DNA from: a virus
Direction: 5' to 3' (one strand)
Virus record (IMG/VR): IMGVR_UViG_3300049489_001113
Location: 36,479 to 100,478 of that record
DNA length: 64,000 bases
This document shows, piece after piece, positions 1 through 27,783 of this stretch. The notes under the pieces were generated by a model. It saw only the letters and a program-made list of their open reading frames with translations. It made no database searches and had not been told where the DNA came from. The stretch's first letter is position 1, and each line of letters opens with the position of its first letter. A program made the translations under genes and the position numbers.

Positions 1-2
1 CG

Positions 3-965
3 AACGCGCCTGCCGAGTCCCTGGACGCGATGTGGACGAGGCTGGACCCGGCCGCATCTGGGTTCTACTACGACGGCATCACGGTCCGGACACCGGGCGT
101 CACCGGCCCCACCTGGAGCCGCTATCAGAACGCCGGCCCTACCACGACGGAGGCCCTCTACAGCTCGGCCTTCCCGGCGGGCGGTGTCGGTGTCTGCATC
201 GCTGGCCAGGACCAGGTCGCGAACCCGGTGAAGAGTCCAACGCGGCGCACCCCCGACACCACGAACAGTGCGAACATCCTCATCGCGAACGTGGCAGCCA
301 ACGCGGGCGCCTTCGCGTCGTGGGATGCGGCTGCCGTGTTCGGGGCGAGCGCCCGGCACTTCAACTACTGGAAGTGGGCGACGATGGGCATCGCCACCAC
401 GGTCAACTTCGACATGTACGAATGCGAGGAGGCGTTCGCCGTCGCTGCCTTCGCGGCAGGAGCCCCTGTCGGGCTTCTCATCGGGGCCATCTACGACCAG
501 CACAGCCAGCTCGGGGCCGACGCCGAGGTGGGGGGTGCCTCCGCTGGTCGGGTCATGGGCATGGTGACCGGAAACGCAAGCATTGCAACCAATTTCCTGT
601 CGACCAGCGATGTGCTCAACGGCAACAACGTCGGGCAGTTCATGGACCACCACACGACCGAGGGACAGAACCACAACGGGATCCTGATCCCCGGGCAGAC
701 CGGCATTCGAGTCGCCGACAAGTACGGGAACACGGCCTACGACGGCAACACCTTCCGTACCCTCGGCGGGATCAACGTCATGCAGACCGGCTACCCGTTC
801 TTCGAGAGCCAGGGCTCTCTCCTTCTTGGGACCTCCCGCCAGAGTGGCCCCTGCCCACAGACCACCCTCGGGGCCGTGTTCCAAAGTGGTGGAGTGGACG
901 TGGCCTACACGGCATTCTCCGGCTCCCACATCAGCGCCCAGCAGGCGTGGGCCCTGGCGGCATAG
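3..965 (+). CDS. Hypothetical protein, possibly virion-associated (5' probably truncated by window)
   Basis: Frame open from position 3; G/T/A/N-rich beta-type composition; GC3-biased codons. Confidence 0.7.
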   Translation, partial: NAPAESLDAMWTRLDPAASGFYYDGITVRTPGVTGPTWSRYQNAGPTTTEALYSSAFPAGGVGVCIAGQDQVANPVKSPTRRTPDTTNSANILIANVAANAGAFASWDAAAVFGASARHFNYWKWATMGIATTVNFDMYECEEAFAVAAFAAGAPVGLLIGAIYDQHSQLGADAEVGGASAGRVMGMVTGNASIATNFLSTSDVLNGNNVGQFMDHHTTEGQNHNGILIPGQTGIRVADKYGNTAYDGNTFRTLGGINVMQTGYPFFESQGSLLLGTSRQSGPCPQTTLGAVFQSGGVDVAYTAFSGSHISAQQAWALAA

Positions 966-974
966 GAAGCCCAC

Positions 975-1244
975 ATGCGCATCCACGACACCGGGTCCGA
1001 CAACTATCTCGTCGAGTTGATGCAGTCCCCGCTGGCTGTCGTGGAGCGAGCCCGGGGCGCGCTGTCCATCACCCACCCGGTCTCGTCTGTTGAACTGTTC
1101 GGTGGGCGCGCGAAGATCTGGTTCTATGAGAACCGCGCTGCTCTCGACGCGGACATGGTCGAACTCGCGGCACTGACCTACGAGAACGCTGCTCAGGTGG
1201 TCGAAGTCGACAACGATGGAACCTGCGTGGACGTCACGCCGTAG
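975..1244 (+). CDS. Hypothetical protein (89 aa)
   Basis: AGGA RBS, tight packing with neighbours, phage-like codon use. Confidence 0.7.
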   Translation: MRIHDTGSDNYLVELMQSPLAVVERARGALSITHPVSSVELFGGRAKIWFYENRAALDADMVELAALTYENAAQVVEVDNDGTCVDVTP

Positions 1245-1253
1245 GAGAAGAGA

Positions 1254-1646
1254 ATGTGGAACTGCCACCACTGCTCGAAGGCCGCCCTCGACACGGATGC
1301 TCGGTGCCCCCAGTGCGGAGCGCCGAGAGCCAGAAGCTCGCGGGCCGGAGGGTCTCCGGTGCCCGAGGCCGTCGCGATCAACCAGTGCACGAAGCTCAAG
1401 TTCGGTGACGGCAAGGCATTCGGCTACATGCGCTGGACCGAGGAGTTCGGCAGCGTGACGGACTCCCACCATCAGCTCGTGATGAACATGCGGGTGGAGC
1501 CGCCCGGTCTCGCCGAGCCCGAGGAGATGAAGCAACTCGGTGAGTGGGGCTGGGTCAAGGTCGCCCCGGGCCACTACCAGCGTGAACTGGAGCGAGCCCC
1601 GGTCATCACGTTCGAGGGTGAGAAGGCGAAGCATCTCCGGTTCTGA
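1254..1646 (+). CDS. Hypothetical protein with N-terminal zinc ribbon
   Basis: CHHC...CPQC motifs; AGGAG RBS. Confidence 0.7.
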   Translation: MWNCHHCSKAALDTDARCPQCGAPRARSSRAGGSPVPEAVAINQCTKLKFGDGKAFGYMRWTEEFGSVTDSHHQLVMNMRVEPPGLAEPEEMKQLGEWGWVKVAPGHYQRELERAPVITFEGEKAKHLRF

Positions 1647-1770
1647 GATCACCGGCGCAGAACTCGCGCACATCCTCACCGCTGCCGGCGCACTCGTACC
1701 CGACTGTCCGCCACCCCTCCCTGGGACGGCGTGCGAACATCTCGAGCTTCTCCATGCCCGGGAACATCAA
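1606..1770 (-). pseudogene. Orphaned original 3' end of the MT-A70 methyltransferase gene
   Basis: Encodes LMFPGMEKLEMFARRPREGWRTVGYECAGSGEDVREF, paralogous to the current MTase C-terminus MFVSLDKLELFARRDRPGWTCVGNECPSTSGVDIRDW; genome-typical GC3. Confidence 0.8.
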
Positions 1771-2387
1771 CACCATGAACGCGCTTCGTTGACGTGCGTA
1801 AACAGCTCCGCACGTAGTTTCACGGCGGCCGTGACGGCTGCCTCGAAAGAGTCGAAGCACCCCCCGTTGTGTCGAACTCCTTGGTGGCACACGCGAACCC
1901 TGAACCGCCCACCGTTCTCCAAGTACACGTTCCTATGTCCGGTGGACGACCTGCCACGCTGGTTCTGCACACTCTGCTGGGGAGTAACGACGCGGAGATT
2001 CGCGCGTCGATTGTTCAATCGGTTGCCGTCGATGTGGTCCACTGCAACCTCACGGCGCGTCTCTTGGAGCAGAAACCGGTGTAAGAACCCGCGCCTTGAT
2101 CGCACGTAACCGTGCGTATTCAAACTCCAGCGCCCTGCTCTCATAAGAAGCGGAACATCAGCTATATCAACAATGGTCCTGCTGACCACCGCACCTCGCC
2201 GATTCGTGAGGAGAAGCCACACACCATCAACCGCCTCCACCAGATCATTGAAGCCGCGTGAAATGGCGCCAGCCTTTCGTCTACGTTTGGCGGCGTAATG
2301 CGTGTTGCACACACCGTTCGCGTACCTGGGTCGCGGGCACCCTGCGACCCCGCAAGGGGACCTACTCTTACTGTTTGACCCAGTCAC
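1767..2387 (-). CDS. HNH-AP2 homing endonuclease with N-terminal Cys/His zinc finger
   Basis: CGVAGC..GVCNTHY; VDHIDGNRLNNRRANLR HNH core; AP2-like C-terminus (RNVY..RFRVRV..GCFDSFEAA); GTG start with GGAG RBS lying inside the MTase 3' end; lower GC. Confidence 0.88.
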   Translation of the reverse strand: MTGSNSKSRSPCGVAGCPRPRYANGVCNTHYAAKRRRKAGAISRGFNDLVEAVDGVWLLLTNRRGAVVSRTIVDIADVPLLMRAGRWSLNTHGYVRSRRGFLHRFLLQETRREVAVDHIDGNRLNNRRANLRVVTPQQSVQNQRGRSSTGHRNVYLENGGRFRVRVCHQGVRHNGGCFDSFEAAVTAAVKLRAELFTHVNEARSWC

Positions 2388-2994
2388 GGATATCAACTCC
2401 AGATGTTGATGGGCACTCGTTACCTACACAAGTCCATCCTGGTCTATCACGTCGGGCAAAGAGTTCCAACTTGTCTAAACTGACGAACATTGAGTCCAGC
2501 GCATCCTGCACGCACTCGGGCTTCGCGCTGTGCTTCAGGTTCGGTGCGAAGAACACGTTCCGCACCGACCTGTTCTCGAGCTTGTCGTACACCTTCCCTC
2601 GCGTACCCACGAGCATGAACTCGCACGCATTGCGGGCGAGCCGTCCCATCCCGAAGGCGATGTCGGACGCACCGATCTGAACGTCCTCGGCATCCACCTC
2701 GACGCCCTTGCCCGTCTTCACCCAAACCCATACCTGCTTCTGCTCGAACCCGTACGCGTCGACGGCGCACATCCCCGCGGAGATCATCGACGCCGGGCAC
2801 CAGAGAACGAGCACGGCGTCGTCCGCCGCGACGTTCTTCACGGGCAGGGTCACAATGTCTCGGATCGACATCGTCGTGTAGTTCGACCCGGCCCCCCTCG
2901 GTACGTCGCTCATCGTGAGCTTGTCCCCGAATTGCCAAGCTGGATCCGAAACAATCACTCCATACTTCTTCTGTTCCACGCGTTCTCCCTTCAC
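2368..2994 (-). CDS. MT-A70 family N6-adenine methyltransferase
   Basis: IVSDPAW (DPPW-like), WVWVK, E-x-x-LVG-x-RG, HSAKP, KLELFAR motifs. Confidence 0.9.
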   Translation of the reverse strand: MKGERVEQKKYGVIVSDPAWQFGDKLTMSDVPRGAGSNYTTMSIRDIVTLPVKNVAADDAVLVLWCPASMISAGMCAVDAYGFEQKQVWVWVKTGKGVEVDAEDVQIGASDIAFGMGRLARNACEFMLVGTRGKVYDKLENRSVRNVFFAPNLKHSAKPECVQDALDSMFVSLDKLELFARRDRPGWTCVGNECPSTSGVDIRDWVKQ

Positions 2995-3959
2995 ACCATC
3001 TCCGACTCGAGCAGCGCCGACACCACGTCGGCACCCAGTGAGTCCGGATCTTTCCTGTCGTCACCCGAGTAGCGCGCAACCCACGAGGGTACGTGCTTCG
3101 CCACCGTGTCCGCGAGGATGTGCGTCCCCGTCGTCCCTGCCGGATCGTTGTCCAGAAAGAACGTGCACGAGGACGCAGCGCACAGAAGCTCGATCTGCCG
3201 GCGGCTCGGCTTGCTCCCCATGATCGCCACGGGACACACCTCGCCGAGACGAGCATGCCCCCGCGTCTCCTGCCACACCCGCATCGCGTCGAAGGGTCCC
3301 TCGACCACCACGACGTGCGCTGCCTCCCGTGCCGCGAGGTGGGCGCCGAAGAGGTGGCGGGACTTCTTCGCGTTCCAGTACGTGTGCCACCGTTGCGGGT
3401 CGTCCCGCGTGGTGCGCCCGAGGGCGCCGGCGAGGCGCCCGTTGCGGTTGCGCAGAGGAACCGTGGCGCGGTGCCGTTCCTTGTCGAAGCCCACGGACCA
3501 GGCTTCCATCGCCTGGACGGTGAACCCCCGCCCCATCATGTAGTCGCGCGCCTCCTCGTGAAGCGGCGCGAACTTCTCGTACATCACGCCGGGCAGGAGG
3601 CCGTCATCGTCGTCCTTCGCGGGTGGCGCGTCGTAGTCCTCCACCGCTCGAACCGCGTCGAGGAGACCATCCTCCTCGAGTTCGATCACCTTCCACCTGA
3701 TCTCGTCGAGGTCTGTGTCGGCGTGAAGCTCGAGCGCATCGAGAAGCTGCTCCACGGTGCCGCCGAACCCGCACCCGAAGCAGTTCACGAGGCTGCGCAC
3801 CGTCTCGCCGTAGCTGATGCCCATGGACGGGTGACGGTCGGTCCCCTTCTTGTGCCGCCACGGCGCGAGCAGGCACGAGAACTGGACGTTCCCGCCCCCC
3901 GTCACCACACGGCTGGCGCCGAGTTCGTCGGCTACCCAGAGGACGTCCTTCTCGATCAT
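2991..3959 (-). CDS. DNA primase (zinc-binding domain + TOPRIM)
   Basis: C..H..D.HPS..NCFGC zinc domain; VVEGPFD and LDNDPAG TOPRIM motifs; start reassigned to MIEKD (TGATG overlap). Confidence 0.88.
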   Translation of the reverse strand: MIEKDVLWVADELGASRVVTGGGNVQFSCLLAPWRHKKGTDRHPSMGISYGETVRSLVNCFGCGFGGTVEQLLDALELHADTDLDEIRWKVIELEEDGLLDAVRAVEDYDAPPAKDDDDGLLPGVMYEKFAPLHEEARDYMMGRGFTVQAMEAWSVGFDKERHRATVPLRNRNGRLAGALGRTTRDDPQRWHTYWNAKKSRHLFGAHLAAREAAHVVVVEGPFDAMRVWQETRGHARLGEVCPVAIMGSKPSRRQIELLCAASSCTFFLDNDPAGTTGTHILADTVAKHVPSWVARYSGDDRKDPDSLGADVVSALLESEMV

Positions 3960-4522
3960 CAGCGCAACCCGAAGTCGCGGAGAATGACCGCGGTGGCTTC
4001 CTCGAGGCGCACCAGATCTCCGACGTTCATGATCGTGGCGTCGGCCTCGATCGATCGCTGCTCCGTCTCCGAGGCGTGCCCGTCGCCGTCGTACCCGGGG
4101 CGAGACACACGCACCAACTTCCCTCCGATTGAGCGGATCATCTCCGCCTCGTTCGCAAACCACACATCCGGCACGAGCCACAGCCGCACACCCGCGTCGC
4201 CTTCGATCCTGCACCGCAGGTTCTTCACCCACACCTGCGGGTCGATGCTCCGCCCGACCTCGGTGCCGAGGAGCTGCATCAGTTGACGCGGGGTCTTGTC
4301 CCAGCGAGGGTCCACGACCTCCTTGTGCTTGGGGTTGTGCATCTGCGCGTGCGACAGGTCGAAGATGATCTGCGCCGCCTCCTTCAATGGGGCAGCGAAG
4401 TGCGTCACCTGCACGCCGTCATCACCTGGCCGGTGCGTGAGCAGTTTCTTCGCGAGGCTGGCGAAGGTATCCTTGCCCGCCCCCTTGCTCCCAAGGATCC
4501 CGATCACACGAACGCTCATCAC
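3959..4522 (-). CDS. Deoxynucleoside monophosphate kinase
   Basis: GSKGAGKDT P-loop, FAAPLK, PRQLMQLLGTEVGR, DVxFxNE, HASE motifs. Confidence 0.9.
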   Translation of the reverse strand: MMSVRVIGILGSKGAGKDTFASLAKKLLTHRPGDDGVQVTHFAAPLKEAAQIIFDLSHAQMHNPKHKEVVDPRWDKTPRQLMQLLGTEVGRSIDPQVWVKNLRCRIEGDAGVRLWLVPDVWFANEAEMIRSIGGKLVRVSRPGYDGDGHASETEQRSIEADATIMNVGDLVRLEEATAVILRDFGLR

Positions 4523-6357
4523 GACACCCTCCCTTGCGCGAACAACCCGAGCGTACGGGGGAACGCGTCTGACAAGATCCGTTGCACGACAAGGGCGAAC
4601 TGCCTGATCTCAAACTGCGCGGCCTCATCGGTACGCAGCGCGAGGAAGGCGACCCACCCACGCAGGTTCGACGTCGCGCGCATGCGCGAGTACCGGCCCA
4701 CGGGAAGGATCACACGCGCGAGTTCCTTCGGTACCCCATCGGAGAGGGCCGACTGATAGTCATCCTCGAGCTGCGCGTAGCGGGCCACCAACTTACGGCG
4801 GTACGCCTCCGCCGAGACCGCATCGAGTTCGCGCGCACCGTGGATGCGGTTGGCCTGCTTGTTCGAGCCCGTCGCGTTCACCGTCAGCCGCTCGACGGTC
4901 GGGACGTAGTTCACGTCCGGCAGCGGGGTGTACCTGGCCGACATCTCGTTGTAGCCGAAGGGAACCCTGTGGCGGTGCCACTCGCGGAACACGAAGATGG
5001 GTGCCTGAACCTCGACGGTGATCCCCGCCATCTCGAACGGCGTGTTCCCAGAGAGGACAACTTTCCCCCCGCGTCGCACAACCAGTACCCCAGTGCGGGT
5101 GTTTGCGCAGTACACGGTGCCCTCGTATGGAACCCACGACGTATTCACACGGCTCTGATTGATCACTGGCTCCGTCATCCGCGACAAGAACATCATCCGG
5201 TAGAGACCAACGTCCGATCTCCCAACCTGAACACACTCCCCGGCGTGGATCGCGATGCGTTGAACGGCATCTGCGAGCGGCGCCGACATGGTCGTGTACT
5301 CCCAGGCTCCGCGCTTCTCTGAACCGTCCGAGTTGCGCAACCCATCAAGCAAGGCAGCCGCATCATCAGCACCAAGGTCCATCAGGAAGTCTGGAATACA
5401 CTTGTCTCCATCTGGTGTATAGAACCACCGCCGAAATGCGGAGGTCAGCCCGTCGGCGCGCACAACACACGAAGACAACTCGTCGCAGGCCCAGCCTACC
5501 CCCGCGCACACTTCCTTCAGGTACGCGATCTTCCGCTTCTTCCGAAGATGGAACTGGATCGAGTTGCGAACGGTGCCGTCGTCACGCCCAGCGAACCCAT
5601 CACCAAGGAAGAACCCAATCAACCGCAACAGCTCGCGCGAATCGTCGTGCTGCGGGAACCATTCCGATAAGTCCACATATGACCGCTTGCGCCGTGCATG
5701 CTTTCGATAGCGCACCATCGAACGGAACCCAAGCTCCTCCACGGTCTCCAGGCGCCATGGAGACCACACCTGTCGGTTCTCGCCAACCACACTCACCTTC
5801 GTCTGCACGTACATGCGGTGCCCCGGCGTTACGAGCAAGTCCACTCCGCCATGATCGACACGGTACATGTTCCCTTTGAACGGATCGGCAACGAGCTGGA
5901 GCGGGGCCTCATACACCAGGGACTCCGCAACAGGGTCCCAGCAACCGAGCAGGTCATCCTTCCGTACGTCTGGCCACGTCACGAAACCGCGCCGAGTCAG
6001 AACCTCGGTCGCCGCATCGTAGCAGTGGTGTTTGTGCTCCCACAGGTAGCGAAGGAGCTTTTCATCACCGGGCTTCGCGTCTTCGATTGCGACGTGCGCG
6101 CCACCGCGTTCCGTCGGGCAGTGGGTGTGTGGTAGACGACCTGTTGTACTCGACACGCCGCACGAGCAGCGAACCTCGCCCCATCCCTGGAACCCCTTGT
6201 TCGTGCTCATTCGTGCGGCCTCGATGATCTGCTCCTCCGAGCCCCACATCTCGATGAGCTTCACGAATCCGTGGTCGAGTACGGGAATCGGCTCCTCGTA
6301 CTTCTCCATCAACTGCGTCTTGTGCAAGTCCACCCTCATGTTGTCGTTCTCCCTCAC
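4519..6357 (-). CDS. thyX: Flavin-dependent thymidylate synthase, intein-containing
   Basis: AARMS, H-x-TPFE (after splicing), EWHRHR..YNEMSARY, ELARVILP, AQFEIR motifs. Confidence 0.92.
   Translation of the reverse strand: MRENDNMRVDLHKTQLMEKYEEPIPVLDHGFVKLIEMWGSEEQIIEAARMSTNKGFQGWGEVRCSCGVSSTTGRLPHTHCPTERGGAHVAIEDAKPGDEKLLRYLWEHKHHCYDAATEVLTRRGFVTWPDVRKDDLLGCWDPVAESLVYEAPLQLVADPFKGNMYRVDHGGVDLLVTPGHRMYVQTKVSVVGENRQVWSPWRLETVEELGFRSMVRYRKHARRKRSYVDLSEWFPQHDDSRELLRLIGFFLGDGFAGRDDGTVRNSIQFHLRKKRKIAYLKEVCAGVGWACDELSSCVVRADGLTSAFRRWFYTPDGDKCIPDFLMDLGADDAAALLDGLRNSDGSEKRGAWEYTTMSAPLADAVQRIAIHAGECVQVGRSDVGLYRMMFLSRMTEPVINQSRVNTSWVPYEGTVYCANTRTGVLVVRRGGKVVLSGNTPFEMAGITVEVQAPIFVFREWHRHRVPFGYNEMSARYTPLPDVNYVPTVERLTVNATGSNKQANRIHGARELDAVSAEAYRRKLVARYAQLEDDYQSALSDGVPKELARVILPVGRYSRMRATSNLRGWVAFLALRTDEAAQFEIRQFALVVQRILSDAFPRTLGLFAQGRVS
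5044..6024 (-). mobile_element. Intein (327 aa) with LAGLIDADG homing endonuclease in ThyX
   Basis: Starts CYDAATEVLT, block B VTPGH, LIGFFLGDG and LLDGLRNSDG motifs, ends VVLSGN followed by extein Thr. Confidence 0.92.
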
Positions 6358-7631
6358 TTGAAGATCACGGTCTCTGCGTCGAACCCATCGTCGTCACCGT
6401 CACCGTCGGGAGCGGCCACATCGGACAGCTCCTCGAAGTTCATCGTCTCGAGATCCCACCGGACCTTGAACTCGCCGGTGAGACCTTCGCGCTGCTTCAG
6501 CAGGCGAATCATCAACTCGTAGTTGTTGCGCATCTCGTCGGTCTGCAGGAGCCCGAGCACGAGGTCCGCGTCCTGCCCGATCGAATCGCTGAAGGCGAGC
6601 GAACTCAGGTCACCGCGGAGCCCCTTCGACTTCCGGTTGAGCTGCGTCGTCACGACCACCGGGATCCCGAGCCGGACGGCGAGGCGCTTGAGATCCCGGG
6701 TGATGTTGGTGATCCCCTCCCACCCGGTCTCACCCTTGTCGTCGCGCATCAGGTAGAGACCGTCGAGGAACAGGATGTCCGGCTGGAACTGGTCGACCTT
6801 CGCGGCGAGACCGGTGACGCCCATGGCCGCGTCGTCGGAGGACACCCAGAAGTCAGGCATGTCCGCGTACAGGCGGACGCTCTCGAAGAACCGCGCCTCC
6901 TGCTCCTGCGAGAGATCTCCGGACCGGAGCCCGGCGTAGGGGATCTTCGCCCGAGCGGCGTCGACGCGGCGGGTGAACTGGTCGACGGCCATCTCGCGCG
7001 AGACGATGAGCGGGACCCGCTTGGCGACCCCGTGCACCTCGTTGGCGAGCAGGGTCATGAGCCACGACTTTCCGACACCGGGGCGCGCCGAGATCACGAC
7101 AAGCTCACCGGGGCGGAACCCGAGCGTCCACCGGTTCAGCGTCGGCCACGGCGTGGGCATCCCGGTCATGCCGCCCATGGTCTTCAGGCGCTGGTACTGC
7201 TCGATGCGCTCCTCGAGCGCGGACCGGAGGTTCACGTCCTGCGAGCTGCGGATGTCCTGCTGTGACAGGGCGGCCGCGTTCTCGATGACGCGCAGCGCCC
7301 CCCTCGGGTCCTTGTCCTTGAGCAAGTTCCCGGCCTCGACCGCCGCGTCCTTGATGCGGAAGTGCAGGCGCCGGTTCTTCAACTCCTGCAGGTAGTACGC
7401 GGCCGCGGCCGGCTGCTCGTCGTCCGCGAACAACGCGGGGAACTTCCGCTGCACCTCCTGCGCCGGCGGCATGCCCCCGAACTCGCGGTTGTAGCCCGCG
7501 ATCCAGGTCCAGACCGCCCGTCGCCCCTCGTCGAGGAACAGGGACTCCTCGAGCCCCTGCTGGACCATCGCCAGGTAGACCGCCCGGTCTGCCCGCAGTA
7601 TGTCCCTAAGAATGCCTGTTTCAATGTCCAT
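6354..7631 (-). CDS. DnaB-like replicative helicase
   Basis: ARPGVGKS Walker A, SREM, LFLDGLYLM, TQLNR, SDSIGQDAD, KQREG. Confidence 0.93.
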   Translation of the reverse strand: MDIETGILRDILRADRAVYLAMVQQGLEESLFLDEGRRAVWTWIAGYNREFGGMPPAQEVQRKFPALFADDEQPAAAAYYLQELKNRRLHFRIKDAAVEAGNLLKDKDPRGALRVIENAAALSQQDIRSSQDVNLRSALEERIEQYQRLKTMGGMTGMPTPWPTLNRWTLGFRPGELVVISARPGVGKSWLMTLLANEVHGVAKRVPLIVSREMAVDQFTRRVDAARAKIPYAGLRSGDLSQEQEARFFESVRLYADMPDFWVSSDDAAMGVTGLAAKVDQFQPDILFLDGLYLMRDDKGETGWEGITNITRDLKRLAVRLGIPVVVTTQLNRKSKGLRGDLSSLAFSDSIGQDADLVLGLLQTDEMRNNYELMIRLLKQREGLTGEFKVRWDLETMNFEELSDVAAPDGDGDDDGFDAETVIFK

Positions 7632-8095
7632 TATACGCGCTCCCGCTGTCCGACGTGCCCCACCCTATGCCCCTGCCCCTCGAACACCCGCGCCTCGACA
7701 CCCCCGATCGTGGGGATGTCGACCTCCTTCGGGACCAGGAACTCGATCAGCCTCGGAATCTGCCCCGCCGTCGAGCAGTACCCGGCCCAGGATTGCGTCC
7801 GGACGATCGAGCCGACCCAAGGACGGTCCCGGGACACGAGCGATTGTAGGGCATCCTGGAGGACCGGACGACCAGGCACCACCACCTCGAAGAAGAACAC
7901 CCCGGCCTGGGTGTTGACCCAACGGGCGGTGTCCTCCCGCAACCGCAGGAGACGCACCACCAGGAAACCAAGGTCGAACCTCACTGCCTTCTCGAACAGC
8001 CAGAGGCGCAGCCCATCTTCCGGGGGTGCGTAAAGCAACCGCCAGTCCAGGTGAACCCTCGGCATGGGGTAGTTGGACAGGTCGCCCCTACGCAC
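7631..8095 (-). CDS. Hypothetical protein in replication operon (154 aa)
   Basis: Overlap-coupled to both neighbours. Confidence 0.65.
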   Translation of the reverse strand: MRRGDLSNYPMPRVHLDWRLLYAPPEDGLRLWLFEKAVRFDLGFLVVRLLRLREDTARWVNTQAGVFFFEVVVPGRPVLQDALQSLVSRDRPWVGSIVRTQSWAGYCSTAGQIPRLIEFLVPKEVDIPTIGGVEARVFEGQGHRVGHVGQRERV

Positions 8096-8678
8096 CGCGC
8101 ACCTCCACGAGGTGGAGATGCTTGTCCCGCACCAGGGTGACCAGCACCGGGTACCGCGCGAACAGGTCGGTGAGAGGCAGGTACGACGTCACCAGGGTGG
8201 GCCGCCGGTTCTGCGCCCGCACGTGCAGCAGGTTCTGCACGGCGCTCTTCACGAACGAATCCTCCTCGCGGTGGTACTCGAGCCCGAGCCCGCCGAGCCA
8301 CAGGAAATCCACCCGCTCGACGTGGTCGGACGTGTGGACAGGGTCGCCGAACTCGTCCCGGGTCGCGAAGGCGTTGCGCACGATGGCGCGCTGCAGGTCG
8401 TTCACCTCGATGTGGTAGACCGTGAACCCCCCGCGGATCGCCGCCTTGAGCACCACGGAGATGCCGCGAGCCTGCTCCTCGGGGAAGGTGTCGCCGTGGG
8501 CCCCCACGAGCAGGAACCCCGATCCGGCCCGACGAACCTTGGGCAGGTGCTCGACGTACCGACGCACCACACCCACGAACGTCTCGTCCGCGCGGATGTC
8601 GTCGACCTCGACACCCCAGTACCCTTCCGGGATCTGGGCGTGCCGGAGCTGCTCCGATGTGGGAACCGGTGTCGTCAC
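8088..8678 (-). CDS. DnaC/IstB-like helicase loader with degenerate Walker motifs
   Basis: AQIP.., GSGFLLVG, VDFLWLGGLGLE, R..NRRPTLVTS layout matches DnaC/IstB; lies between initiator and DnaB. Confidence 0.7.
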   Translation of the reverse strand: MTTPVPTSEQLRHAQIPEGYWGVEVDDIRADETFVGVVRRYVEHLPKVRRAGSGFLLVGAHGDTFPEEQARGISVVLKAAIRGGFTVYHIEVNDLQRAIVRNAFATRDEFGDPVHTSDHVERVDFLWLGGLGLEYHREEDSFVKSAVQNLLHVRAQNRRPTLVTSYLPLTDLFARYPVLVTLVRDKHLHLVEVRGA

Positions 8679-9022
8679 GAGGCACTCGGGAAAGGGGCGA
8701 CCTTCGGCGTCTTCTCGTCCTGCACCTCGTCCTTCGCGGACCCGGGTGAGGGGGAGGTCTGCTCGTCGAGCGAGTGGAAGAACACGTTCCCGTTCGGGAC
8801 GCGGAACTCACGGCAGTACCGCAACTTCAGGCGCTCGAGGTGATTCTCATGCACCGGGAACTCGCGGATGATCCGATCGCGGCCGAGGAAGACCTCGCGG
8901 ATGACGACGCGGTAGCGCCCGATCCCCTTCTTGTCGGGCCCCTCCTCGTAGACGTGAAGCTCACGCGGCTTGGTGACCGCTGTGGCCTTCTTCGGTGGGA
9001 TCTTCGTGGGTTTCTCATTCAT
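8675..9022 (-). CDS. Hypothetical protein (MNEKPTK...)
   Basis: GGAG RBS before ATG at 9022; GTGA overlap with the downstream gene. Confidence 0.65.
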   Translation of the reverse strand: MNEKPTKIPPKKATAVTKPRELHVYEEGPDKKGIGRYRVVIREVFLGRDRIIREFPVHENHLERLKLRYCREFRVPNGNVFFHSLDEQTSPSPGSAKDEVQDEKTPKVAPFPSAS

Positions 9023-9027
9023 GGTGC

Positions 9028-10176
9028 TCACTCCTTGCCCTGTGAAATTGCTGCGTACTTGACCGGGTCCTTCTTCGCCAACTCCATGGTGAGGCGTGGA
9101 TCCTTCAACCCAGGAAGCACGAGCAGCCCGGTCTTCGGGGGGACGATCGGGCGCCCGTTTCGGACCACGTCGAACACGGTCTCCTGTTGAGACTGCAGGA
9201 ATCCGATGGTTGGACGCTCCTTGTCGTCCACCCAGTGGAATCGCTTCCGCCACTGGTCCCAGTCCTCGACGAAGCTCGAGAGCGCCTTCTCCACGTCGGA
9301 CTGCCCGTAGTGGTCCACCAGCACGTTCACGAGCTTGCGCTCCTTGCCGAGCCACAGGGCGGGGTGCTCGTTCGGCCAGCGCCGCCTCCAGGCGGAACGC
9401 CACGCACGCTGGGCCAGGGTCGACGGGGTCGAGGGCTTACCCTCGTCCTGGTCATCCGGAGGACCGTGGGACCTCTGCCGGGGTGAGGCGGTCGGAACAG
9501 CTGGGGCTGCTCGACCGGTGGCACGGTCGGACGGCCGGGTGTGCTGACGGGTCGGAACGGGTTCGACCGCCGGGTTGGATCCACCCTCGACCTCTGATCG
9601 ATCTTCGTCGGAGGTTTTTTGCGCGGAGCGCAACTCCCTCTTCTCTCCCTTTTCTTCTCCCTCTTCTTCCCTATGTATCCTTTGCAGTGGGGGGGTTTGC
9701 ACTGTGAGTGGGGGGGTTTCGCACTGTGAGTGGGGGGGTTTCACACTGTGAGTGGGGGGGTTTCGAATATGCAAATAGTCCAAAACACCCCCACTCAATG
9801 GGGTGGTTTCTGTGCCTAAAACACCCCCACTCAATGGGGTGGTTTCTGTGCCTAAAACACCCCCACTCAATGGGGTGGTTTCTGTGCGAGCGGGCTCCTG
9901 CAACCACCCGTGGTTGATGTGGTACACGGCGGCCCTGCCCCGTCCACCACCCCGGTCCGTGGCTCGGATCGCGGCGCGGGCGATCAGTTTTCCGATGGTA
10001 GCTTGGAGCCAGTTCTTCGAGAGTCCAGTCTCAAGCAGCAGTGTCGCTACGCCTGGGTAGGACGCCCCCGTCTCAGAATTCTCGTGGTGTGCCAGTACAA
10101 CAAGCACGAGTCGCTCCGCTGCTGACAGCGGTTTGCGTGTTCGCAGTACGTTGCGGAGCCTGTCCGACGGTAGCAT
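9028..10176 (-). CDS. Replication initiator protein (N-terminal HTH, internal iterons)
   Basis: LVLVVLAHH...SYPGVATL..ETGLS HTH_36-like domain; central repeat region; upstream of loader and helicase as for lambda O-type initiators. Confidence 0.82.
   Translation of the reverse strand: MLPSDRLRNVLRTRKPLSAAERLVLVVLAHHENSETGASYPGVATLLLETGLSKNWLQATIGKLIARAAIRATDRGGGRGRAAVYHINHGWLQEPARTETTPLSGGVLGTETTPLSGGVLGTETTPLSGGVLDYLHIRNPPTHSVKPPHSQCETPPLTVQTPPLQRIHREEEGEEKGEKRELRSAQKTSDEDRSEVEGGSNPAVEPVPTRQHTRPSDRATGRAAPAVPTASPRQRSHGPPDDQDEGKPSTPSTLAQRAWRSAWRRRWPNEHPALWLGKERKLVNVLVDHYGQSDVEKALSSFVEDWDQWRKRFHWVDDKERPTIGFLQSQQETVFDVVRNGRPIVPPKTGLLVLPGLKDPRLTMELAKKDPVKYAAISQGKE
9686..9887. repeat. Putative replication origin iterons: four ~22-bp repeats (AGTGGGGGGGTTT core) and three 36-bp tandem repeats
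   Basis: AGTGGGGGGGTTT x4 at 9686-9764; AAAACACCCCCACTCAATGGGGTGGTTTCTGTGC(CT) x3 at 9782-9887, separated by an AT-rich spacer; inside the initiator gene. Confidence 0.85.
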
Positions 10177-27261: not shown

Positions 27262-27783
27262 ATGCTGAGCACGAACTCGTGGGCACTGCCTGTAGATCGC
27301 TTCTGGGCTGGGGTCGACAAGAACGGACCGATAGTACCGGGCTTGACCACTCCGTGCTGGTTGTGGCTGGGAAGCAGGAAAGCGCACCCTCAGCAAGACT
27401 ACGGATTCTTCCAGATCCAGAACCGACGCGTGGGCGTACACCGCTTCTCGTGGGAATTGCACTTCGGTCCCATACCCGACGGGCCGCACTGTGTTTGCCA
27501 CAAGTGCGACAACCCACCGTGCGTGAACCCTGATCACCTCTTCCTCGGTACGCGCCTGGAGAACAACCGCGACAAGGAAAGCAAGGGGCGAGCAAACAGG
27601 CCGCTCGGTGAGAACCACCCGCACGCGAAACTGACTGCGGAAGCAGTGCGTTGTATACGCGCTGAGAGAAGTTTACCACCGGGTAGCCGAACCACACTCC
27701 GGGAGCTGTCAGATCGCTTCGGCGTGGGGCCCGATGTGATCTGCGCCGTTGCCCGTGGACGGGGATGGCGCCATGTGCAGTGA
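27262..27783 (+). CDS. Free-standing HNH homing endonuclease
   Basis: RFW..VDK, CWLW.G, HRFSW, VCHKCDNPPCVNPDHLFLGT..EN, C-terminal HTH; opposite strand within baseplate operon. Confidence 0.92.
   Translation: MLSTNSWALPVDRFWAGVDKNGPIVPGLTTPCWLWLGSRKAHPQQDYGFFQIQNRRVGVHRFSWELHFGPIPDGPHCVCHKCDNPPCVNPDHLFLGTRLENNRDKESKGRANRPLGENHPHAKLTAEAVRCIRAERSLPPGSRTTLRELSDRFGVGPDVICAVARGRGWRHVQ

Follow-up and report, generated by a model that had tools for sequence, protein, structure and literature searches.

Why does a phage DNA methyltransferase gene carry its C-terminus twice, with an endonuclease gene lying between the two copies? The question is raised by a locus in a 64,000-nt stretch of viral DNA (hereafter, the window), corresponding to bases 36479-100478 of the 100,478-bp IMG/VR virus record IMGVR_UViG_3300049489_001113, which is 97% complete according to CheckV. 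The source sample is a freshwater-sediment metagenome, and the window has a GC content of 65.7%. On its minus strand, an MT-A70 methyltransferase gene changes its codon usage abruptly shortly before its stop codon; an endonuclease gene of the HNH_3 (I-HmuI) type starts inside this last segment, the surrogate tail, and a second version of the same C-terminus, the orphan tail, follows the endonuclease stop. The reading that we regard as probable is that the HNH_3 gene formerly neighbored another methyltransferase allele and was copied into the MT-A70 gene along with the 3' end of that allele, the point of entry lying between ..QDALD and the xMF.. that follows.

A methyltransferase gene with two 3' ends

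The methyltransferase open reading frame (ORF), which runs from 2994 to 2368 and encodes 208 amino acids, matches Pfam family PF05063 over the full profile (positions 1-172 of 172, E = 1.6e-22). Its catalytic DPPW-type motif reads DPAW, as in P0003, P0009, and P0010 (P numbers designate homologous proteins). The frame is nevertheless composite (Table 1). GC content at third codon positions (GC3) drops from 0.844 for the core (2994-2494) to 0.405 for the surrogate tail (2493-2368), the values for the HNH ORF and the orphan tail being 0.643 and 0.709. In sliding-window profiles, the fall from about 0.9 to 0.29 is located between 2511 and 2469.

Table 1. Features of the locus and of the convergent neighbor, in window coordinates.
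Feature	Coordinates	Strand	Basis
Native core of the MT-A70 DNA methyltransferase gene, 167 codons, ending ..KPECVQDALD	2494..2994	-	Pfam MT-A70; GC3 0.844
Surrogate (cassette-borne) C-terminus, 41 codons and TAA, in frame with the core	2368..2493	-	GC3 0.405; 10 invariant residues; likeness to P0008
Entire inserted cassette, 723 bp	1771..2493	-	Deletion gives an in-frame, gapless gene
GGAG, Shine-Dalgarno-like motif within the surrogate tail, 9 nt upstream of the HNH GTG	2397..2400	-	Read from sequence
HNH_3 (I-HmuI-type) endonuclease ORF, 206 codons	1767..2387	-	PF13392, E = 3.9e-9; homologue P0080
Orphaned native methyltransferase C-terminus, 54 codons and stop	1606..1770	-	MT-A70 profile positions 150-172; tail tree
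Zinc-ribbon ORF, convergent	1254..1646	+	ORF list; weak Zn_Ribbon_1 match, E = 4.9e-4

The orphan frame (1770-1606) matches the MT-A70 profile with an E-value of 0.0024, which lies under the curated cut-off, and it is matched to the surrogate tail by tblastn with E-values of 5e-9 to 8e-9. No convincing start codon or ribosome-binding site of its own can be read for it, and it is presumably silent. When 2494 is joined to 1770, by deletion of 1771-2493, an in-frame ORF of 666 nt (221 codons) is obtained that has no gap relative to the family alignment, and the reconstructed empty junction reads ..GCGCTGGAC followed directly by TTGATGTTCCC.. As the hexamer ATGTTC is present at both junctions, the borders of the 723-bp insert are uncertain by about 6-10 nt. 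A sequence-only reading of this locus had claimed the codon-usage switch after ..QDALD, the second C-terminus at the HNH stop, and the recovery of an intact gene upon deletion, and it proved correct on all three.

The two tails retain all 10 residues that are invariant in the tails of the family, with a nucleotide identity of 53.7% and no common run of more than 8 nt. Different codons encode 12 of 20 conserved residues, and those of the surrogate tail mostly end in A or T. In the AlphaFold2 model of the hybrid protein, residues 161-208 form an integral helix and two strands (pLDDT 86-95), so that the hybrid methyltransferase is predicted to fold with a confidently modeled tail. At the opposite end of the gene, the first 20 or so codons (2931-2994, minus strand) also have a low GC3, 0.43-0.64 versus about 0.9 downstream, which could reflect the closeness to the start codon or the exchange of another segment.

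The HNH gene begins 17 nt ahead of the methyltransferase stop, at a GTG (2387-2385) set within the R-D codons (cGT Gac) of the DIRD motif in the tail. The sequence-only reading rightly placed the start inside the tail, with GGAG as the ribosome-binding site; its exact position is, however, more likely this GTG than TTG 2396, because the GTG lies 9 nt after GGAG 2400-2397 and matches the start of P0080. The HNH stop also coincides with the orphan boundary, as had been claimed, the codon being TGA 1769-1767 rather than 1767-1770, and the orphan tail beginning directly there, at 1770. RNA folding around the HNH start is no better than in shuffles (z -0.16).

As for the protein, its PF13392 match is above the cut-off, and its sole sequence match in the PDB is I-HmuI (1U3E), aligned at I-HmuI residues 69-105. 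The catalytic core DH..N..N is kept, with D117, H118, N126, N130, and N142 invariant across 24 homologues, and a Cys-rich element (C..GC...C..HY) is found in the N-terminal part. The closest homologue, P0080 (210 amino acids), is 56% identical. The earlier label HNH-AP2 stands in its first half; the AP2 domain gives no Pfam match even at E ≤ 1, and can be assigned by homology only, PF00847 being present in 13 of the 24 aligned homologues, whose consensus aligns with residues ~150-200. The genome has five HNH_3-type ORFs in all, including one at ~27433-27570 in the window; the other four are unlike the HNH studied here, belong to different subtypes, and lack flank duplications.

Origins of the tails and linkage of the cassette

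Core and tail were placed in separate trees; the tail trees and the associated approximately unbiased (AU) tests rest on 37 alignment columns, and the relatives are known as proteins only. A protein search with the core alone retrieves P0002 (~78-80% identity), P0003 (73%), and P0004 (71%), plus more distant relatives, and the core tree groups the window core with these three. Over the last 22 core residues before the junction, there is 1 difference from P0002, versus 5 from P0008. The orphan tail follows the same pattern, with best matches to P0002 (25/35 residues) and P0004 (24/35), and its similarity to P0002 extends past the conserved domain (..FC.G.L.T..). In the tail tree, it forms a clade with P0002 and P0004 (ultrafast bootstrap, UFBoot, 99; SH-aLRT 88). 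Since this clade consists of the nearest relatives in the core tree, the orphan tail is supported as the native C-terminus.

The surrogate tail behaves differently. Its best match is P0008, with 30/36 identical residues (81-83%), despite a core identity of just 61-63%. Tail and core identities go together in a set of about 2,500 protein pairs, from which the window/P0008 pair stands out (z 2.4, top 1%), whereas the tail of the reconstructed native gene is as similar to its relatives as core identity predicts (z -0.1 to -0.6). Where nearly every tail has MFP, MFV is confined, among about 120 tails, to the surrogate tail and P0008. A sister relationship of the two window tails is rejected by the AU test (p = 0.0015), as is a position of the orphan tail inside the P0008 clade (p = 0.022). 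As the core and the tail of P0008 both fall with P0009 and P0011, the surrogate tail probably derives from this clade. These comparisons support a foreign origin of the surrogate tail, as opposed to a local copy of the orphan, and uphold the earlier view of the cassette tail as a replacement and of the orphan as the old end.

The tail and the HNH gene appear to travel together. P0080 and P0008 have the same longest contig (4178 bp, JGI), and no other size is common to both match lists. In a dual-coding test, the last 16 codons of P0008 and the first 15 residues of P0080 are co-encodable in exactly one register, which puts the P0080 start inside the R-D codons, as in the window; compatible shuffles numbered 0 out of 2000. 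Because P0080 would, thus, overlap the P0008 tail in the same register as in the window, the data support the view that the tail and the HNH gene are linked as a unit at a second, diverged allele of the methyltransferase, in agreement with what the sequence-only reading had anticipated. The shared overlap also implies that the arrangement predates the 44% divergence of the two endonucleases. No small tail-only protein was found on the 4178-bp contig, which is uninformative, the window orphan likewise not being called as a protein. Tail-only MT-A70 C-terminus proteins of 37-76 amino acids are found elsewhere (P0134, P0148, P0149, P0208, and P0225), called on long contigs (43 kb, 149 kb, and 132 kb) and in a 4.2-Mb genome; these are candidates for additional orphaned tails, but could also stem from genes that are split or broken.

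Related HNH_3 genes are found at other gene ends. In a screen for duplicated gene ends at 80 IMG/VR loci with related HNH_3 genes, an ATP-dependent DNA ligase gene (L097:1386-3444) ends with ..RFRDDKSEVSYG and a stop, while the overlapping HNH_3-AP2 ORF after it ends with ..RFRDDKNEVSYG and a stop; the last 13 ligase codons recur at the end of the HNH ORF, a 13-codon gene-end duplication. At L121:2107-3380, the tail of a CHAP-domain gene is present in three copies: the expressed one, a near-exact tandem in another frame, and a diverged one right after the HNH_3 stop. A mirror-image duplication, at the 5' end, is seen at L143:1414-2701, where a Gp10_C baseplate gene lies downstream of an HNH_3-AP2 ORF and its first 18 codons recur, in diverged form, at the start of that ORF. 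L141 and L142 have a diverged repeat of ~40 bp in the intergenic DNA flanking an HNH. Two further candidates, L103 and L079, were rejected as gene-end duplications, since they are tandem HNH genes.

The HNH is sporadically present or absent among related MT-A70 loci, P0008/P0080 being a probable second filled allele. A second tail or an adjacent HNH occurs in 0 of 95 other MT-A70 loci (some of them redundant), and the contigs of the nearest methyltransferase protein relatives are absent among those of the HNH homologues. At the DNA level, a megablast search of 1200-3600 against 50,697 phage records gave no match, and IMG/VR scans with the window HNH and with P0080 retrieved no relative; the scan with the window core gave a nearest MT-A70 that is 46% identical. 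Scans of metagenomes and genomes did not yield the contigs of P0002, P0004, P0008, or P0080. Reads from the source run contain the filled form only, with no joint skipping 1771-2493, and are uninformative on empty alleles. Among RNA runs, none was found to contain this DNA. In a second public run (aquatic metagenome, another study), low-depth 151-nt pieces covering 3271-3828 differ from the primase gene of the window at 1-2 positions, so that a close phage relative exists elsewhere; its coverage is limited to the primase region and does not include the methyltransferase.

In its genome, the locus stands at the end of a replication operon, in which a primase-like gene (4232-2991) precedes the MT-A70 gene. 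This minus-strand operon converges with a plus-strand operon that ends at 1646 with the zinc-ribbon ORF, the 3' end of which overlaps the final 41 nt of the orphan tail. Neither a sigma-70-like promoter nor an intrinsic terminator was found in 1100-3200. Further upstream on the minus strand (4519-6357), a ThyX gene (PF02511 over residues 439-600) has an insertion of ~330 residues after its N-terminal part; as this insertion gives a faint LAGLIDADG_3 match and its first residue is Cys, it is probably an intein with a homing-endonuclease domain.

Proposed route of insertion and competing explanations

Under the reading favored here, alleles that lack the cassette would be nicked or cut by the endonuclease near the junction, whereupon the left end of the break would invade a cassette-bearing genome within the conserved core, and thereby copy the tail and the HNH gene, while the right end would rejoin at the cut, either via homology with the donor's orphan tail or, in the founding event, by end-joining. 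Because the right end rejoins at the cut, the duplication would start exactly at one alignment column; insertion at one cut predicts such an exact, in-frame boundary, and this is what is observed. The surrogate tail would play several parts in this scheme. It would keep the methyltransferase whole, and it would split and recode the target (54% nucleotide identity, AT-ending codons), which would render the filled allele immune and the two copies unable to recombine and delete the insert. It would also provide the ribosome-binding site and a coupled start for the endonuclease. Cleavage by the HNH protein and mobility of the cassette are what we infer from this arrangement.

A broader proposal would be that the surrogate tail is an evolved part of the cassette, AT-recoded for maximal difference from GC-rich targets, and that the HNH_3 lineage constitutes a general, as yet unnamed, class of spare-end phage elements. 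This is tentative and, on present evidence, rather doubtful. If true, recoding would confer immunity to self-cleavage and prevent recombination with the orphan, with the tail housing the translation start of the endonuclease; the class would span methyltransferase, ligase, CHAP lysin, and baseplate Gp10 genes, and would drive the exchange of gene termini between distant phages.

Several points weigh against the insertion of a mobile tail-HNH cassette. No empty allele was found at the DNA level, the relatives being known as proteins only. The AU test, on its 37 columns, leaves a placement of the surrogate tail beside the native clade unrejected (p = 0.35). The GC3 of the surrogate tail (0.40) is below that of the HNH gene (0.64), which one common donor alone does not explain. 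Finally, since the P0008 tail fits its own clade (P0009/P0011), the HNH at P0008 may simply lie downstream of an intact native gene.

This last point also favors a one-off mosaic recombination, in which a foreign MT-A70 3' end and a neighboring HNH gene would have been acquired by illegitimate or short-homology recombination, with no role for the nuclease and no mobility of the block. Phage genomes are mosaic, a single filled locus is seen at the DNA level, and, the P0008 tail being congruent with its own clade, the donor may be a plain case of an HNH downstream of a methyltransferase. Nevertheless, both junctions fall at the same alignment column and the duplication is exact and in frame, which two independent illegitimate joins would not predict; the insert ends at the HNH stop codon, and related HNH_3 genes are repeatedly located between duplicated ends of unrelated genes. 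We, therefore, hold a one-off event to be unlikely, though worth keeping in mind.

A group I (or II) intron with an HNH ORF would be another way of interrupting the gene: 1771-2493 would be spliced out, and the orphan would be exon 2. HNH genes of the I-HmuI type are typical phage intron ORFs, and deletion of the segment restores a perfect frame. However, a search of 1400-3100 with Rfam, on both strands, gave no family match even at E ≤ 1, in line with the earlier description of the cassette as non-splicing. Splicing would be unnecessary, since the first 41 codons of the segment amount to an entire, conserved MT-A70 tail that has a stop codon of its own; the rest of the segment is nearly all HNH ORF, and folding at its start does not exceed that of shuffles. 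An intron is, accordingly, very improbable.

Equally slight are the chances of a local tandem duplication of the gene's own 3' end, parted later by the HNH insertion, with the upstream copy diverging in place. It would fit the retention of every invariant residue in both copies, and the near-exact tandem tail copy at L121 indicates that such duplications occur. Against it stand the rejection of the two tails as sisters, a GC3 of 0.40 versus 0.84 in the upstream copy and the core, and the closeness of this copy to P0008, with which it shares MFV. The second, distant MT-A70 gene of the genome (G000:C1:11697-12218, outside the window) has an unrelated tail. A source of the tail or of the cassette within the genome was, for the same reason, rejected, the other HNH_3 genes being of different subtypes.

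The record being a metagenome-assembled contig, a chimera of two related phages might be suspected, but this is hardly credible, as two switches exactly at homologous codons would be needed and a Logan contig of the same run (one record, mean depth 25.9), though assembled from the same reads, covers 1-9811 with 0 differences. An intein or a read-through insertion of the ShiLan type was rejected, because the methyltransferase frame stops inside the insert, at TAA 2370-2368, with many further stops following.

Comparison with known mobile elements

If a tail-HNH cassette did enter the gene as proposed, a homing endonuclease that brings along a spare gene end can settle in the coding sequence of a phage and needs neither intron nor intein nor gene splitting to do so. 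The last 41 codons of the chimeric gene then have a separate history, which can mislead gene trees and annotation. Moreover, as the duplication boundary marks the probable cleavage site, the target of this uncharacterized HNH is directly testable.

Among phage systems, I-HmuI, from an intron of Bacillus phage SPO1 (PDB 1U3E), has a matching HNH_3 catalytic core. Like I-HmuI and the Mob genes of T4, the window element would presumably spread by nick-initiated gene conversion with co-conversion of the flanks. I-HmuI is, however, intron-borne, and T4 Mob genes lie between genes or split them (PMC2988022). Introns, inteins, intergenic genes, and gene splitting are covered in a review of T4 mobile elements, and gene-end duplication is not among them (PMC2988022).

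HNH insertions with the ShiLan domain in DNA methylases of actinobacteriophages (PMC11855218) are similar in that an HNH gene homes into a phage DNA methylase gene with no detectable intron or intein, its frame opening at a GTG just a few bases inside the insert and closing within the last ones. The ShiLan insert is, however, read through in frame as an extra methylase loop, with no stop and no duplicated end, whereas in the window the methylase frame ends inside the insert and the remainder of the old gene is orphaned.

The MobA element of T4 gene 60 (Bonocora et al. 2011; bioRxiv 10.1101/2022.08.31.505936), the closest known case in phages, is also a non-splicing HNH cassette inside a phage coding sequence. 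As in the window, it has a recoded homologous replacement (HomR, 67-81% DNA identity) of the nick-site segment, and the coding sequence that it adds overlaps with that of the endonuclease in a different frame. In contrast to the window methyltransferase, which stays one ORF, the topoisomerase gene is divided by MobA into two polypeptides, and ribosomes have to bypass 50 nt in translation; MobA also deletes the parental segment, while the window retains the parental end as an orphan.

Outside phages, the closest known counterpart, with the same layout, is found in fungal mitochondria, in the mORF 'gene hybrids' of Glomus atp6, atp9, cox2, and nad3 (PMC3630166) and of Allomyces macrogynus atp6 (Paquin et al. 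1994, cited in PMC3630166). In these hybrids, as in the window, an endonuclease ORF lies in the 3' part of a conserved gene (PMC3630166), a foreign C-terminus is in phase with the core, and the native C-terminus remains downstream; in trees, close relatives join the native copy but not the inserted one. Nucleotide identity between the duplicates is low in both cases, 64-81% for the mORF hybrids and 54% for the window locus. The enzymes and settings differ: those of the mORFs are LAGLIDADG or GIY-YIG proteins, mitochondrial and often fused in phase, while the window enzyme is an HNH_3, belongs to a 100-kb phage of high GC content, and has an overlapping start of its own in a different frame. 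For Allomyces, mobility is given, in the account cited, as shown biochemically, whereas for the window locus it is proposed from sequence.

The fungal precedent invoked by the sequence-only reading is, therefore, real (PMC3630166), and its statement that no phage case was known has to be tempered by the HomR of MobA (bioRxiv 10.1101/2022.08.31.505936) and the out-of-frame HNH insertion in actinophage methylases (PMC11855218). Beyond MobA HomR, no phage description of a spare-gene-end strategy was found in the literature. The surrogate-gene-end layout is, thus, known from fungal mitochondria and hardly documented in phages; together with the window locus, the ligase, CHAP, and Gp10 cases suggest that HNH genes of phages, too, employ the mORF strategy of mitochondria.

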